Shown here: positions 1 to 20,685 of the stretch, in pieces
How positions within the stretch are numbered: the first letter of the stretch is position 1
Layout of the letters: the number at the start of each line of letters is the position of its first letter
Origin: an uncultured Bacilli bacterium
Lineage (GTDB): Bacteria > Bacillota_I > Bacilli_A > RF39 > UBA660
Assembly: GCA_944358545.1 (NCBI GenBank)
Contig: CALVRJ010000002.1
Location: 3,187-67,186 of the forward strand
Length of the DNA: 64,000 bases
Direction: 5' to 3'
The notes under the pieces: model-generated
Databases searched by the model: none
Told to the model about the DNA's origin: nothing
The model's input: the letters and a program-made list of their open reading frames with translations, nothing else
Position numbers and translations under genes: made by a program

Positions 1-1193
1 TGTTCCAGTTTATAGCCATAATCAAACATATAAGCCATATCTGTTACTTTACTTGTATTAAATGAACATAAGTTTAACTCTTTTATACTTTGTAATCTTG
101 AAAACATAGCATTCATATTAACAACATTACTTGTATCAAAATCTTCAAGCCCTTTTATTTCTTTTAAATTCTTATTATATTGAAACATACCTGCCATACT
201 CGTTACTTTTGATGTGTTAAAATTACTGACATCAATTGTTATTAATTTACTAGTTGCCGAATCCATCGTTCGATCAGAACCAGCCATACTAAACATCGAA
301 GACATTTTTGTAACATTAGATGTATCAAAGGTACTAACGTCTAATGTGGTAAGACTCATACATCCTTGAAACATGCCTTCCATATTAGTAACTTTATTTG
401 TATTAAAATTACTAACATCTAAGTATTCTAAACTGTTACATTCACAAAACATATTATACATATCTGTTACGTTACTTGTGTCAAACATGCTCAAATCTAT
501 GTCTTTAATTTTATTACAATTAGTAAACATACTCCGCATATTAGTAACTTTACTTGTGTCAAAATTACTTCCAAAAATTATTTTTTGTAAATTATTATCT
601 AAATTTTGATTTTCCCACATGGTGAACATTGCACTCATATCTGTAACATTAGATGTATCAAAACTACTTAAATCAATCTCTGTTAAACTAGTACAATTTC
701 TAAATAAATTTGTCATATTAGTCGCATTACTTGTATCATAATTATTATCAAAGTTTATTTCTTTTACTCCTCTAAAATCATAAAATATATTACTACTGTC
801 TTCATTAGCTATTACTTTTCCTTTGGCTCCAATATATAAATCATACTTTGATGAATCACTTAAATTTGGTACTACCCAAGCTTTTACGGTTCCTTTTTCT
901 TTATCTTCGGATACATTCCAGCTTTCTACGGCATTTTCTGGTACATTATTGTTATTTAAAAATGTTATGCTCACTATATTTTGTTTATAAAAGCCAGAAT
1001 GAAAGTCAGTTTGACTATTTTTATCCCACTCTTGAATTACTCTAGTTCCTTCCAAAATATTTCCTTTAACATGCAAACTTATATTTGTTGAAAATGCGGC
1101 ATATCCGGCTGTTATAACAAATAATAAACAAAATGCGGATAAAACTATTATTCTATTTAGTTTTCTTCTTCTATGTCTTCCTATTCTTCTCAT
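1..1193 (-). CDS. DUF285/BspA-like LRR surface (lipo)protein, paralog A; N-terminal ~397 codons, C-terminus beyond window start
   Basis: Minus-strand frame open from 1193 (ATG, M-R-R-I-G-R..., RBS AGGAGAA 8 nt upstream) to window edge. nt 786-1190 are near-identical to 2281-2678 of the downstream paralog. Same FDTSNVT.M..MF repeat architecture. Absent from the ORF track because its stop lies outside the window. Confidence 0.6.
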   Translation of the reverse strand, partial: MRRIGRHRRRKLNRIIVLSAFCLLFVITAGYAAFSTNISLHVKGNILEGTRVIQEWDKNSQTDFHSGFYKQNIVSITFLNNNNVPENAVESWNVSEDKEKGTVKAWVVPNLSDSSKYDLYIGAKGKVIANEDSSNIFYDFRGVKEINFDNNYDTSNATNMTNLFRNCTSLTEIDLSSFDTSNVTDMSAMFTMWENQNLDNNLQKIIFGSNFDTSKVTNMRSMFTNCNKIKDIDLSMFDTSNVTDMYNMFCECNSLEYLDVSNFNTNKVTNMEGMFQGCMSLTTLDVSTFDTSNVTKMSSMFSMAGSDRTMDSATSKLITIDVSNFNTSKVTSMAGMFQYNKNLKEIKGLEDFDTSNVVNMNAMFSRLQSIKELNLCSFNTSKVTDMAYMFDYGYKLE

Positions 1194-1213
1194 ATATAAT
1201 TCTCCTATTTTTA

Positions 1214-1244
1214 TGTACAATTTTATTGTACACCCCCCCCCCCC
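1214..1244. promoter_or_regulatory. 19-bp perfect palindrome TGTACAATTTTATTGTACA abutting a C12 homopolymer (G12 on the coding strand), in the promoter/5'UTR of paralog A
   Basis: Read directly: palindrome 1214-1232, C-run 1233-1244. It lies ~40-50 nt upstream of the start at 1193. TAAAAT/TACAAT -10-like hexamers sit between the tract and the RBS. Confidence 0.5.
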
Positions 1245-1325
1245 AGAAAAATCAAGCTTTCAGGGGGATTAATTTTTATGAGAAAATACGTCATTTTATG
1301 AGGGGGAGGGTTATATTTTGAGTAA

Positions 1326-1351
1326 ATAAAAAACTCTGAATTTAATCAGAG
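1326..1351 (-). terminator. Rho-independent terminator of the 1380..2678 gene
   Basis: Stem CTCTGA/TCAGAG (1334-1339 / 1346-1351) with a 6-nt loop, followed on the minus strand by a T-run (A-run 1326-1333 on plus). Confidence 0.5.
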
Positions 1352-1379
1352 ATTTATTCAAGGACATATTTTTTAATCT

Positions 1380-2678
1380 TTATCCACAATGACCTGTTGT
1401 TACAGATGATGTACCACTTCCGTCAAAAATTCCATTTGTATTTGCTTGAGAAATTATCCAATTTGGTCCGACATATATTTTTTGAAGTTTTGGTGATGAA
1501 GCAAACATTCTTTCCATCTTTGTTACTTTTTTTGTATTAAATGAACATAAATTTAATTCAGTTAAATTCTTATTACTTGCAAACATATGATACATATTTG
1601 TCACATTACTTGTATCAAAATTCTCGAGTCCTTTTATTTCTGACACATTACTGCATGAAAACATATTGTTCATATCTGTTACTCTCGACGTTTTAAAATT
1701 ACTTACATCTAATTCTTTTAAATTATTAATTAAACAATTTCCATTTTCATCACCATACCACATGCTGAACATAGCGTTCATCTTAGTTACATTAGTTGTA
1801 TTAAAATTACTTACATCTAGTTCAGATAAGCTCGTACATTGTGCAAACATAGCTTCCATATCAGTAACATTACTTGTGTCAAATGAACTTACATTTAACT
1901 CTGTTAAACTACTACAACTATTAAACATATGATACATATCTGTAACATTAGATGTATTAAAATTACTGAGATCTAACTCTTTTAATTCAGTAAGTCCAGC
2001 AAACATACTTCGCATGTTGGTAACATTGTCAGTAATAAAATTGTGTCCAAATTTAATATGTTCAAGTTTATTCTCTGGCGTAAGGTTTAACACACTATCC
2101 CACATACAAAACATCGCATACATACTTGTTACATTACTAGTATCAAAACTTGTTAAATCGAGCTCGGTTAAACTTGTACAATTTAGAAACATTTTAGACA
2201 TATCTATTGCATTGCTTGTATCGAAGTTATTATCAAAGCTTATTTCTTTTACTCCTCTAAAATCATAAAATACATATCCACTATTTTCATTAGCTATTAC
2301 TTTTCCTTTGGCTCCAATATACAAATCATATTTTGATGAATCACTTGAATTTGGTACTACCCAAGCTTTTACTGTTCCTTTTTCTTTATTTTCGGATACA
2401 TTCCAGCTTTCTACGGCATTTTCCGGTACATTATTGTTATTTAAAAATGTTATGCTCACTATATTCTGTTTATAAAAGTCCGAATGAAAATCTGTTTGAC
2501 TATTTTCATCCCACTTTTGAATTACTCTAGTTCCTTCTAAAATATTTCCTTTAACATGCAAACTTATATTTGTCGAAAAAGCTGCATATCCAGCTGTTAT
2601 AACAAATAATAAACAAAATGCAGATAAAACTATTATTCTATTTAGTTTTCTTCTTCTAAGTCTTCCTATTCTTCTCAT
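1380..2678 (-). CDS. DUF285/BspA-like LRR repeat surface protein, paralog B (N-terminal signal anchor)
   Basis: 432 aa with ~10 tandem ~25-aa repeats (L.ELDLSNFDTSNVT.M..MF..C.SL), typical of the DUF285 'Mycoplasma/Firmicutes' LRR-like family. Basic N-terminus plus hydrophobic anchor. Confidence 0.65.
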   Translation of the reverse strand: MRRIGRLRRRKLNRIIVLSAFCLLFVITAGYAAFSTNISLHVKGNILEGTRVIQKWDENSQTDFHSDFYKQNIVSITFLNNNNVPENAVESWNVSENKEKGTVKAWVVPNSSDSSKYDLYIGAKGKVIANENSGYVFYDFRGVKEISFDNNFDTSNAIDMSKMFLNCTSLTELDLTSFDTSNVTSMYAMFCMWDSVLNLTPENKLEHIKFGHNFITDNVTNMRSMFAGLTELKELDLSNFNTSNVTDMYHMFNSCSSLTELNVSSFDTSNVTDMEAMFAQCTSLSELDVSNFNTTNVTKMNAMFSMWYGDENGNCLINNLKELDVSNFKTSRVTDMNNMFSCSNVSEIKGLENFDTSNVTNMYHMFASNKNLTELNLCSFNTKKVTKMERMFASSPKLQKIYVGPNWIISQANTNGIFDGSGTSSVTTGHCG

Positions 2679-2692
2679 AATTCACCTCTATT

Positions 2693-2804
2693 ATGACATA
2701 AAATGTCGTTATTATAAATATAATATTTATAATAACAGATGTCAATAATTAAGCGACATTTAATATCGTGTTTTTGAAAAACTAACTATGACATAATATG
2801 TCTA
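2693..2804. promoter_or_regulatory. Divergent promoter/operator region with two copies of palindrome GACATAA(A/T)ATGTC and a 21-bp AT palindrome
   Basis: GACATAAAATGTC at 2695-2707 and GACATAATATGTC at 2790-2802, the latter overlapping the RBS of the XRE gene. TTATAAATATAATATTTATAA palindrome at 2711-2731. Confidence 0.45.
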
Positions 2805-2805
2805 G

Positions 2806-3003
2806 GTGAATAAAATGATAAAAGAGAACAGAGTAAAAAAAGGATATACTCAAGAACAACTGGCTGAACTCATTGATATTAGCTGGCGCCAACTTCAAAG
2901 AATTGAAAAAAATGAAAACAATACTAAAATATCAACCTTAAAAAAAATAATTCAAATTCTAAACATTCCCGATGATGATATATTAAAATTTTTTAAAAAA
3001 TAA
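2806..3003 (+). CDS. XRE-family HTH transcriptional regulator (small, Cro/CI-like)
   Basis: HTH_3 signature (GYTQEQLAELIDISWRQLQRIE). The track start at 2806 is GTG; ATG at 2815 with AGGTGA RBS is the likelier start. Confidence 0.7.
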   Translation: MNKMIKENRVKKGYTQEQLAELIDISWRQLQRIEKNENNTKISTLKKIIQILNIPDDDILKFFKK

Positions 3004-3047
3004 AACTATTCAAATCTGATGAAATATTCATCAAACATGAATAGTTT

Positions 3048-3497
3048 TTATTTATGATAACTTTCGTTATTATTTATTTTAAAACACCTATATATTTGTT
3101 CGAGTAAAATAACTCTAAAAAGTTGATGAGGAAAAGTAAGCTTCGAAAAAGATAAACTATAATTACTTCTTTTTATAACCTCATCAGAAAGACCATAAGA
3201 ACCACCAATTACAAACGTAATTACTGAATGAGAATTAAAAGTTTTATCGATAAATTTAGCCATAGAAACTGAATCCAGCATTTTTCCATTGATTTCTAAA
3301 GTTACGACAAACTCGTTATCTTTTATCTTTTTTAATATTTCCATTCCTTCTTTTTTCAAAGATAAATTACTATCAGAAGTATCCGGAACCTCTTCGATTA
3401 TAACTTTCGTATATTTAGAAAGTCTTTTTAAATATTCATCTATTGCTTCTCTAAAGAAATGCTCTTTAACCTTCCCTACACAAACTATCTTTATCAT
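3048..3497 (-). CDS. rlmH: 23S rRNA (pseudouridine1915-N3)-methyltransferase RlmH (SPOUT)
   Basis: ~150 aa, N-terminal MKI.VV.VGK.K...F..A..EY.KRL and SPOUT knot region. yycJ-rlmH synteny as in Bacillus. Confidence 0.75.
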   Translation of the reverse strand: MIKIVCVGKVKEHFFREAIDEYLKRLSKYTKVIIEEVPDTSDSNLSLKKEGMEILKKIKDNEFVVTLEINGKMLDSVSMAKFIDKTFNSHSVITFVIGGSYGLSDEVIKRSNYSLSFSKLTFPHQLFRVILLEQIYRCFKINNNESYHK

Positions 3498-4252: not shown

Positions 4253-5724
4253 TAATAAACTGACATCGGATTAATCCGGCAGTATTCACAACCTTTCCAT
4301 ATTTCATAATGAACATGAGGTCCAGTTGCCGCACCTGTCATTCCAACATAACCAATAACCTGACCACGTGATACAACATCTCCAACCTTAACTGCAATTC
4401 TTGACATATGACCATACAAAGTATAATAGCCATTATTGTGATTTATAATAACATGGTTACCATAACTATAATGATATCCTGCTTCTATTACTCTACCATT
4501 ATTTGTAGCATAAATGTTTGAACCATATCCTGTACCACTTATATCAAGACCACCATGTAACTCACGTCTACCATTAATCGGACTAGTTCGCCAAACATAT
4601 CCACTACTCAATGTCCAACCACTATCAGTCGGCCATCCCCAACTCGTCGTACTACCAACATCAGGAATAACTTTACTACCCTTAACAATAATTTTAGATA
4701 CAGGAGCTTTTAAAGTTTCTTTACCTTTTGGATCAACATAAACAATTGTCCCATTAATTTTTCTTTCTAGCTGTGAAACCCTATCCATTCCATTTGAACC
4801 ATCTTGAATAACCTTATCTTGTCCAACAACCATATTATCGTCGTAACGTTCCTCTGTTGAATATTGACTTTCGATATCTTCGACTACATAAGTCTCTTCA
4901 ACCACACTTATCTGAGGATTAGTTTCAGCAATCGTTAACTTTTGCCCAGGATAAAGCAAATTACTTGTACTCGTCAAAGAAGAATTAGACAGTAGAAGTT
5001 CCTCTGGACTAATTTGATTATTAAAAGCCACATTGTCAATCGTATCACCTGCATTAACCGTATACTCACTAGTATCATAATCTTTACCATATAGTAAGTA
5101 ACGTGCAAGATCATCTGCATCAGTATAAATAGTCTTGTTAACTGGAATATTCGTCTCCTTAAAAGTTATATCTTCATCGATATAAACATTTTCAATGTTC
5201 TCACCAGTTGTTTCAATCCTAACCTGATTATCATCTAAATAAGCCTTATATCTATCTTTACCAACAAAAGTTTCAATCAAAGCCTCAACAGCCTTTTTAA
5301 ATACATTTTTATCTAAAACGTATATCGTTTGAACTTTAGTTTTACCAGTCGGATTACCCTCTTCATCAGTCTCTTCCTTTTTTATCTTAAATTCATAACC
5401 TCTAATCGTAAACTCTGAATCATCGGCAATCTTCTTATAAACATCTCTAACTGAAGAAACCTTATCATCATAAGTAGTTATTTTTTTAACTTGTAAATCA
5501 GAAGGAGAGTAAACATTTTTTACCTTATATTTATTCTTATAATAAGAACCATTTGTATTTATATAGTCATCAAGTTCATCTTTAGAAGCAATAACCCCTA
5601 AAGATTTATCTTTTAAATACACCTCATAATAAACATTTGGCTCAGGTGACTTTTGATAACCAAAACCTAAACAAACGACACCTATAGTTACAATAATCAA
5701 TCCCAAAAATACAATTTTTTTCAA
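4252..5724 (-). CDS. M23 family metallopeptidase (LytM domain) with N-terminal TM anchor
   Basis: C-terminal HGGLD...H.H motifs of peptidase M23; single N-terminal TM. Confidence 0.7.
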   Translation of the reverse strand: MKKIVFLGLIIVTIGVVCLGFGYQKSPEPNVYYEVYLKDKSLGVIASKDELDDYINTNGSYYKNKYKVKNVYSPSDLQVKKITTYDDKVSSVRDVYKKIADDSEFTIRGYEFKIKKEETDEEGNPTGKTKVQTIYVLDKNVFKKAVEALIETFVGKDRYKAYLDDNQVRIETTGENIENVYIDEDITFKETNIPVNKTIYTDADDLARYLLYGKDYDTSEYTVNAGDTIDNVAFNNQISPEELLLSNSSLTSTSNLLYPGQKLTIAETNPQISVVEETYVVEDIESQYSTEERYDDNMVVGQDKVIQDGSNGMDRVSQLERKINGTIVYVDPKGKETLKAPVSKIIVKGSKVIPDVGSTTSWGWPTDSGWTLSSGYVWRTSPINGRRELHGGLDISGTGYGSNIYATNNGRVIEAGYHYSYGNHVIINHNNGYYTLYGHMSRIAVKVGDVVSRGQVIGYVGMTGAATGPHVHYEIWKGCEYCRINPMSVY

Positions 5725-19258: not shown

Positions 19259-19728
19259 TAACATTCCCCTTTCAAAAACATCACAAATAAAATATGTAAA
19301 AAAAAACAATAAGAATAATAAAATCCTATTGTTTGTAAATAATCATAATTAAAATTTTCCTCCTCGCCCTAATTAGGGATTTATCAAACGACTAATTGCT
19401 AATTAGTTCCATAGGAATTTCACCTCAACTGTGGTTCTCACAGAGCCGTTCCGATTGATTGAGTCTATCGCTAAACGGAAGTATCATTATACTTTTAATT
19501 TGTCATCGCAAAATTAAGAGCAACTTAATTTTTATAACCAAATATTTATCGCTAACTATTTAATATAGATTACTGCGTATTTGTTAACGTGCTATAATTA
19601 AAAGAACGTATTTGATAAATGCTATTTGATTATCAAAGAACAAACTTATTTCTAAAAAAGAAACAAGTAAAAGGAACTTATCCTTCCAATTGTTTCCTAA
19701 ATAAAGAGTGATTTAACAGACACAAATT

Positions 19729-20607: not shown

Positions 20608-20685
20608 CTAATAAAAATAAAAATAAAAATAAATTATAAATTATAAATTATTAATAATTAATAATTAATAATTAATAATTAAGAA
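20608..20685. repeat. Cluster of A/T microsatellites: (ATAAAA)3, (TTATAAA)2-3, (TTAATAA)4-5
   Basis: Read directly in the 580-bp intergenic region between the sigma gene and the bacteriocin operon. Confidence 0.6.

Follow-up and report, generated by a model that had tools for sequence, protein, structure and literature searches.

The stretch of DNA analysed here, referred to as the window, comprises 64,000 nucleotides of a contig from an uncultured Bacilli bacterium (GenBank assembly GCA_944358545.1, contig CALVRJ010000002.1, positions 3,187 to 67,186); its GC content is about 28%, and the minus strand carries nearly all of its genes. At the left end, two surface-protein genes of the DUF285/PARCEL-repeat type, paralogs A and B, lie in tandem on that strand and are the only DUF285 genes in the 64 kb. 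Paralog A is preceded by a cassette of about 110 bp that contains a run of twelve G residues on the coding strand (G12). We found 19 copies of this cassette, spread over at least three loci and two lineages, with G-tracts of differing length beside invariant flanks. An earlier note on this DNA had read the arrangement as slipped-strand phase variation through a poly-G tract in the promoter. This reading is supported by the comparison of tract lengths between strains, not by experiment, and we put its probability at roughly three in four.

Two tandem surface-protein genes with unrelated upstream regions

Both proteins match Pfam DUF285 (PF03382, cut-off 25 bits; E 1.4e-48 and 164 bits for A, E 7.5e-46 and 155 bits for B) and the NCBIfam model TIGR02167 'PARCEL repeat' (cut-off 30 bits; E 8e-67 and 220 bits for A, E 2.8e-62 and 206 bits for B). 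The full-length protein of paralog A has 430 aa (P0001, 100% identical), and the exact protein of paralog B was found on 14 contigs. Tandem Repeats Finder gave a repeat period of 78 nt, or 26 aa, in both genes, and the TIGR02167 model, of which 7–8 stretches are matched in A and B, likewise has 26 positions; the degenerate repeat shared by the paralogs is therefore real, but 26 aa long and not 25 as first noted. The original description as a 'DUF285/BspA-like LRR' (leucine-rich repeat) family is borne out in its first part only, since neither protein matched the BspA-type model PF13306 (LRR_5) at E ≤ 0.01, and other LRR models gave weak, mostly sub-threshold matches beneath the DUF285 match. 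A sequence search of the PDB with paralog B returned no homologue, and a protein scan of genome contigs recovered only more distant metagenome-assembled genomes (MAGs; 'uncultured Bacilli bacterium', an Erysipelotrichaceae MAG and others).

Read by eye, the common N-terminus, MRRIGRxRRRKLNRIIVLSAFCLLFVITAGYAAFST, consists of a basic stretch followed by a hydrophobic one and contains no canonical lipobox, which suggests a putative N-terminal signal-anchor. The ...AGYAAFST motif at the N-termini of DUF285 proteins in this group is, we presume, reminiscent of TasA/SipW-type signal peptides. At the opposite end, the DUF285 proteins examined (P0001, paralog B at window 1380–1400, and L005 3001–4026) share the C-terminal motif ...VT(R/T/K)G(Q/H/M)C(G), which is conserved and has a terminal cysteine.

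The two genes are 94.0% identical across their first 450 nt, beginning exactly at the ATG, and 66.8% identical beyond that point, in agreement with the earlier description of adjacent paralogs with near-identical 5' parts. Their upstream regions, at 40% identity, are unrelated. The features listed in the earlier note were all recovered, none displaced by more than 1 nt.

Paralog B shares a 137-bp intergenic region with a divergent gene for a small XRE-type regulator. Palindromic 13-bp sites of the form GACATAAWATGTC occur three times in the 64 kb (0.31 expected; 0/100 shuffles) and are confined to this region, where two perfect copies and an HTH_3-encoding gene bear out the proposal that paired palindromes are shared by B and the regulator. 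The XRE gene occupies the same position in all related contigs, and the divergent XRE-DUF285 pair is also present in the relative L005. The XRE protein is likely to act in repression and autoregulation at the candidate operators.

Anatomy and dispersal of the poly-G cassette

Paralog A follows the terminator of B, and its upstream region reads, on the coding strand, ...CCCTCCCCC...CCCCCTGAAAG-CTTGATTTTTCT-G12-TG-TACAAT-AAAATTGTACA-TAAAAAT-AGGAGA-ATTATAT-ATG (Table 1). G12 is the only G/C run of at least 7 nt in the window, which contains five G/C 8-mers against 0.14 expected, a count that no shuffle reached. The tract directly adjoins a perfect 8-3-8 palindrome, TGTACAAT-AAA-ATTGTACA, that is unique in the window. 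As had been proposed, the homopolymer (C12 on the plus strand) and the 19-bp palindrome are located where the elements of a promoter are expected: the tract sits between a -35-like TTGATT and a -10-like TACAAT, with a spacer, read by eye, of 19 bp (TTTCT + G12 + TG), and TACAAT lies about 18 nt from the ribosome-binding site. This promoter-consistent order, TTGATT-19-TACAAT-~18-AGGAGA-7-ATG, and the presence of G12 in DNA of 28% GC count in favour of a promoter-located switch. An Rfam search of window positions 1–3200 found no known RNA, even at E ≤ 1.

Table 1. Features of the paralog A and B region (window coordinates)
Feature	Position	Strand	Remarks
Paralog A, DUF285/PARCEL-repeat surface-protein gene	1..1193	-	ATG at 1193; 3' end cut off by window start
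Ribosome-binding site AGGAGA of paralog A	1201..1206	-	7 nt before ATG; read from sequence
Conserved 8-3-8 palindrome TGTACAAT-AAA-ATTGTACA (19 bp)	1214..1232		Abuts tract; candidate operator; contains the -10-like hexamer
-10-like hexamer TACAAT	1225..1230	-	5/6 matches to TATAAT; sequence reading; within palindrome
G12 homopolymer, coding strand (C12 on +)	1233..1244	-	Variable element
Conserved 12-mer CTTGATTTTTCT	1245..1256	-	Contains -35-like TTGATT (1250-1255)
C5 box CCCCCTGAAAG	1257..1267	-	Conserved in both lineages
Upstream cassette part	1268..1326	-	Conserved at both loci of the species; C-rich box CCCTCCCCC (1302-1310), two CTCATAAAA repeats
Intrinsic terminator of paralog B	1334..1351	-	6-bp stem, then T6 (terminator scan)
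Paralog B, DUF285/PARCEL-repeat surface-protein gene	1380..2678	-	432 aa
Palindrome GACATAAAATGTC	2695..2707		Candidate XRE operator; between -10 and ribosome-binding site of B
Predicted sigma-70-type promoter of B, TTGACA-17-TATATT	2717..2745	-	11/12 matches; best in region (promoter scan)
Degenerate third palindrome copy GACATTTAATATC	2755..2767		
Palindrome GACATAATATGTC	2790..2802		Candidate operator; just upstream of ribosome-binding site of XRE gene
XRE/Cro-type HTH regulator	2815..3003	+	62 aa; Pfam HTH_3, E 8.3e-14; alternative GTG start 2806; divergent from B

Further contigs were gathered through identical or near-identical proteins and by a scan of metagenome contigs for CTTGATTTTTCT followed by G7. 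The genes downstream of the cassettes are DUF285 genes and, once, a gene for a large Ig/PKD/fn3-type protein. At the locus of the window itself, where paralog A is followed by spoIIR, the upstream neighbour of the cassette varies and is paralog B, an Rpn-like gene, an insertion sequence (IS) or small peptide genes. The same species group has the cassette at a second locus as well, where the order is YfhO, cassette, DUF285, TED-domain protein and sortase. The upstream cassette part (1268–1326) can be aligned in L011, L027 and L029–L037 although the genes upstream differ, and the 12-mer CTTGATTTTTCT is retained in the copies that were recovered independently through protein look-ups. TACAAT is kept in nearly all copies, with TATAAT in L013 and TAAAAT in the low-coverage L038. 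The arms of the palindrome are conserved across both lineages and its three central nucleotides vary (AAA/GGA/GAA), a pattern over the -10 that fits a site for a dimeric protein.

Seven further pattern matches (L016–L021 and L026) were rejected as cassettes; they come from unrelated taxa and occur at about the rate expected by chance for a 19-mer in a collection of that size. Two of these, L019 410–428 and L021 2368–2386, represent one locus of an unrelated organism (about 43% GC) in two metagenomes, in which CTTGATTTTTCT is followed by G10 and G11, respectively, a further G-tract of variable length. A scan of viral contigs for the cassette gave no matches, and our literature searches found no description of it.

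Tract length varies beside invariant flanks

Among the 19 copies, G12 is the most frequent tract (nine copies), followed by G11 and G13 (two each) and by single cases of G14, G17 and G8; the remaining three are interrupted (G2A5G7, G3AG8 and G5TG6) (Table 2). In L033–L037, which stem from five samples, there are no mismatches in the 1290-nt gene or in the 39 nt from tract to ATG, and the 84 nt before the tract differ by 0–1 mismatch or by a 1-nt indel in a C-run (L037), yet all five tracts are different. L031 and L032 encode an identical protein behind G11 and G12, and L023 and L024 carry G12 and G11 between identical flanks. Because the tract varies against invariant flanks in all three comparisons, we infer that no other site of the cassette-gene unit is nearly as mutable, as would be expected of a slipped-strand contingency locus. 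The earlier note had named an invariant homopolymer across strains as the outcome that would speak against phase variation; instead, G8, G12, G13, G17 and G5TG6 stand beside identical flanks.

Table 2. G-tracts of the 19 cassette copies
Locus	Copy	Tract	Remarks
Own locus	Window	G12	
Own locus	L010	G12	
Own locus	L011	G12	
Own locus	L013	G12	2-nt insertion before TATAAT -10
Own locus	L027	GGAAAAAGGGGGGG	Interrupted
YfhO-flanked locus	L029	G12	
YfhO-flanked locus	L030	G3AG8	
YfhO-flanked locus	L031	G11	
YfhO-flanked locus	L032	G12	
YfhO-flanked locus	L033	G12	
YfhO-flanked locus	L034	G13	
YfhO-flanked locus	L035	G5TG6	
YfhO-flanked locus	L036	G17	
YfhO-flanked locus	L037	G8	
YfhO-flanked locus	L038	G12	
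Second lineage	L022	G13	Between two tandem DUF285 genes
Second lineage	L023	G12	Contig stops before gene; cassette-to-ribosome-binding-site flanks identical to L024
Second lineage	L024	G11	Before large Ig/PKD/fn3-type protein
Second lineage	L025	G14	After Rpn-family gene
Three of the four second-lineage contigs (L022–L025) come from one metagenome, ERZ1643249.

A trivial origin of the tract, as a sequencing or assembly artefact of the kind produced by two-colour chemistry (poly-G), might be suspected from the contig L002, which ends at exactly G12, and from several other cassette contigs that end near the cassette. In over 15 independent contigs, which stem from at least three studies, the tract has unique sequence on both sides; this effectively refutes the explanation and leaves it a negligible chance. 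The contigs break at the cassette because the cassette and the 5' ends of the genes are multi-copy repeats. For the same reason we rejected L002, which shares a 55-nt exact overlap with L010 at an assembly-graph branch point, as evidence of tract heterogeneity, since such repeats break assemblies anyway.

Several further observations concern these and similar loci. In L037, upstream of position 565, the C-rich box differs by 1 nt within its homopolymer (CCCTCCCCCC vs CCCTCCCCC) between alleles that are otherwise identical. At the YfhO-flanked locus (L030 3941–6185; also L031 and L032), an 842-aa YfhO-family membrane protein precedes the cassette, and the DUF285 gene is followed by genes for a 299-aa TED protein (PF08341), a sortase and a DUF3800 protein, a surface-adhesin neighbourhood. 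Rpn-family genes stand beside the cassette in two different contexts and lineages: L025 341–1240 (-) encodes an Rpn-family recombination-promoting nuclease/putative transposase (TIGR01784, E 7e-11) directly upstream, and L011 3–314, which has no Pfam match, was assigned by eye only, from its C-terminal similarity to the L025 protein. The distant MAG contig L006 (SUG1206) contains two G9 tracts (397–405 and 4361–4369) in similar contexts, TTAAyhT-G9-TACTTwyTAA, each at a distance of 110–130 nt before the start of a gene. One stands before a 619-aa open reading frame with no Pfam match, itself followed after 28 nt by a 584-aa DUF285 gene, and the other lies just after that DUF285 gene; both tracts count in favour of the proposed switch.

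Spacing of the predicted promoter and other possible roles of the tract

A number of points weigh against a switch that acts through the spacing of the two hexamers. A promoter scan (consensus, spacers 16–18) did not call TTGATT-19-TACAAT; the modal spacer of 19 bp lies outside the usual 16–18 bp, and the scan therefore misses the putative promoter of A. All four uninterrupted alleles at the own locus (window, L010, L011 and L013) have G12, and the two extra nucleotides in L013 extend its spacer to 21 bp. Two of the three interrupted tracts also total 12 and precede intact genes; since such tracts are presumably stabilised, a length of 12 may be a functional state rather than an OFF state. With a modal spacer of 19 bp, either most alleles would be OFF or the assumed promoter geometry would be wrong. 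Moreover, the tract lengths are consensus calls from metagenome assemblies, some at only 3.7–8.6x coverage, and Illumina sequencing miscalls long homopolymers by about 1 nt, so that differences of one G need caution. Sequencing error cannot, on the other hand, account for the difference between G8 and G17. L031 and L032 lack the TG dinucleotide, and their spacers are therefore 16 and 17 bp.

These points bear on a related but distinct explanation, in which the tract is hypervariable and affects expression not through -35/-10 spacing but by bringing an activator site or other upstream element (the C5 box or an AT-rich block) into phase with a core promoter, or as a rheostat from within a 5' leader whose transcription starts further upstream. 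The modal spacer and the range of 15–24 bp poorly match a switch based simply on sigma-70 spacing; in both lineages, a conserved C5 box and AT-rich block lie just upstream of the 12-mer; and in RNA folding an upstream CCCUCCCCCUC box pairs with G12 (z -3.2). The T-tract rheostat of Helicobacter pylori sabA (PMC4081817) provides a precedent for a tract effect that does not depend on the spacer. Yet inspection by eye of the sequence ahead of the C5 box revealed no convincing promoter, and the second lineage lacks the long C-rich box. The complete cassette-gene unit also persists where an IS insertion and the boundary of homology in L013 fall at the 5' edge of CTTGATT, which suggests that the core unit starts there. 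On balance we regard an effect of this type as unlikely and retain the promoter-spacing switch as our preferred interpretation.

The C5 box could also play a structural part. It can pair with TTTCT and the first five G's of the tract in a predicted hairpin (DNA fold of -13.2 kcal/mol, z -3.8), the 8-nt loop of which holds most of the -35 element, and L030 shows a compensatory CTCCC/GGGAG change. The tract might accordingly be structural or neutral, either pairing with the C5 box in a hairpin or cruciform or insulating neighbouring genes from each other, its length differences being unselected mutational noise. Such a role would agree with the predicted pairing of C5-T-GAAA with TTTC-T-G5, with the change in L030 and with the predominance of G12 among the tracts. 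The covariation is not significant, with a single compensatory pair, an equally good result in 176 of 500 shuffles and uncompensated variation at position 7, and the hairpin is not a terminator because no T-run follows it on the sense strand. A 12-nt G run in 28% GC DNA, placed identically with respect to the -10 and the ribosome-binding site at many loci of two lineages, is hard to explain without selection for the tract itself. We consider a structural or neutral tract very unlikely.

Around the -35, the C5 box and the first G's of the tract form an imperfect inverted repeat (window 1240–1267 (-); equivalents at L030 2427–2454 and L027 1428–1460), and the interruption in L027 yields a perfect TTTTTC-TG-GAAAAA inverted repeat. 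We speculate that the changes in L027 and L030 fit template-switch mutation at a quasi-palindrome. An ECF-sigma -35 (TGAAAG in the C5 box) was considered and rejected by eye; its G varies (G/A/C), and no CGTx -10 follows.

Recombination between the paralogs and IS junctions

The recombination potential between the two copies, which the earlier note had suggested, is realised in natural populations: in L012, L014, L015 and L028, a single DUF285 gene with a B-type 5' part and an A-type remainder lies between the XRE gene and spoIIR. By window-by-window identity, L012, L014 and L028 have a B-like promoter and a B-like first ~450 nt and are 100% A-like thereafter, and in L015 the change from B-like to A-like sequence falls inside the first ~100 nt. 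These two hybrid patterns thus point to at least two independent crossovers within the shared 5' region. Each crossover removed the repeat domain of B together with the poly-G cassette and left the repeat domain of A under the XRE-side promoter. The two-gene arrangement itself is independently supported by L002 and L010, from one sample.

The match of L001 and L003 to the window breaks off precisely at gaaag|cttgat, and their divergent sequence encodes, on the opposite strand, ...HSSIGYVSPVEFEKSL followed by a stop, a typical C-terminus of an rve-type transposase; the upstream end of L013 looks like the terminal repeat from the opposite end of that IS. The IS sequence lies at L001 4412–4521, L003 2116–2203 and L013 1–78, and the 5' edge of CTTGATTTTTCT coincides exactly with the IS insertion and with the start of homology. 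We conclude from these junctions that, in some strains, an IS has inserted immediately upstream of the putative -35 (CTTGATT). An invertible promoter was ruled out, as the L001/L003 junction has no inverted copy in the window or loci and corresponds to the IS end.

Other features of the window

The only Rfam match in the window at the gathering threshold is a pemK RNA motif (RF02913, 55.7 bits) at 19409–19490 (-). Adjacent AT-rich microsatellites, (AATAAA)4 and (ATTAATA)4, occupy positions 20610–20677, in the part of the window with the lowest GC content.

Proposed mechanism and its implications

Based on the cassette comparison, we propose the following scenario, in which (i) A and B would be expressed from two unrelated promoters, B from a strong sigma-70-type promoter in the region that it shares with the XRE gene and with two to three palindrome copies, and A from the promoter of the ~110-bp cassette, with the order C5 box, CTTGATTTTTCT, G(n), TGTACAAT-N3-ATTGTACA; (ii) the G-tract would form most of the spacer between TTGATT and TACAAT, the spacer being n + 7; (iii) slipped-strand mispairing in replication would alter the number of G's and with it the distance and the helical phasing of the hexamers; (iv) the altered spacing would switch or grade transcription of the downstream surface-protein gene in a stochastic and reversible manner, so that cells within a culture may differ and only certain lengths may represent an ON state; (v) the palindrome over the -10 probably binds a dimeric regulator, which would add a deterministic layer; and (vi) homologous recombination over the 450-nt shared 5' region deletes the body of B and the cassette and places the repeat domain of A behind the XRE-side promoter. 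Because the same cassette precedes several surface-protein genes per genome, combinatorial surface states would be possible in the population.

A broader interpretation, which we advance tentatively and hold to be possible rather than probable, is that the ~110-bp unit is a modular and perhaps mobile contingency promoter, combining a poly-G switch with a palindromic operator, that has spread in front of multiple unrelated surface genes, for PARCEL proteins and for a giant Ig/PKD-type protein, and thereby gives walled, spore-forming Bacilli a Mycoplasma-style combinatorial variation. If true, neither such variation nor its link to PARCEL proteins would be a speciality of the wall-less Mollicutes, and the formation of B::A hybrids would constitute a second, recombinational layer through which repeat domains would pass from a stochastic promoter to a regulator-controlled one or back. 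Proteins of the PARCEL/DUF285 type abound in ruminant mycoplasmas and occur sporadically in other bacteria, and the strong evidence for their contingency-type control in walled Bacilli supports a surface role exposed to the host or to phages. The mechanism is not new, as homopolymer switches in promoters and recombining paralog families are textbook knowledge; the lineage and the cassette are. The fixed signature CTTGATTTTTCT-Gn-TGTACAAT makes tract lengths readable from existing metagenomic reads of an uncultured organism.

Comparison with known systems

The (TA)n promoters of Vmc/Vmm, the poly(A) tracts of Mycoplasma hyorhinis vlp and the poly-G/C tracts of Neisseria porA and opc are classic examples of variable promoter spacers. 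In Neisseria meningitidis, porA (poly-G) and opc (poly-C) carry a G/C homopolymer of about 9–14 nt in the core promoter, the length of which sets expression through the spacing of the hexamers. The cassette resembles them in having a G/C homopolymer within a core promoter, here a predicted one. In contrast, porA and opc are single genes of a proteobacterium, with no dispersed cassette and no palindrome, and encode unrelated proteins; moreover, the relation of length to expression has been measured in N. meningitidis and is here a prediction from sequence. The vlp genes of M. hyorhinis have poly(A) between -35 and -10 in a conserved promoter region before each member of the surface-gene family. 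They share with the cassette the location of a homopolymer between -35(-like) and -10(-like) elements in a repeated promoter region, as well as the tandem paralogs, but differ in the nature of the homopolymer, in encoding lipoproteins with different repeats and in belonging to a wall-less Mollicute. The T-tract of H. pylori sabA lies upstream of the -35 and reportedly tunes transcription through the axial alignment of upstream elements (PMC4081817). It is promoter-proximal like the tract described here, but its position upstream of the -35 makes it a model only for the alternative that does not involve the spacer.

The Mycoplasma mycoides cluster provides the closest analogue, with contingency loci that precede PARCEL genes and reportedly also the Vmc/Vmm genes. 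The PARCEL repeat was defined as equivalent to DUF285/TIGR02167 by Roske et al. 2010 (PMC2996958), who found homopolymeric or dinucleotide repeats (VNTRs, variable-number tandem repeats) as contingency loci in the 5' flanks of PARCEL open reading frames of M. capricolum and described these as 'governed by modular contingency loci'. Both systems involve the same protein repeat family and tandem paralogs, and both have a modular 5' region with a simple-sequence repeat that is common to several surface genes and for which combinatorial stochastic expression is proposed. They differ in the repeat, which is a G homopolymer of 8–17 in the cassette and (TA)n or another VNTR in the M. mycoides cluster; in the cassette sequence, which is unrelated and has a conserved palindrome over the -10; in the proteins, which carry a putative signal-anchor rather than a lipobox; and in the host, which is here a walled, spore-forming, uncultured member of the Bacilli (SpoIIR, sortase and LysM-M23 peptidase neighbours) that uses the standard code.

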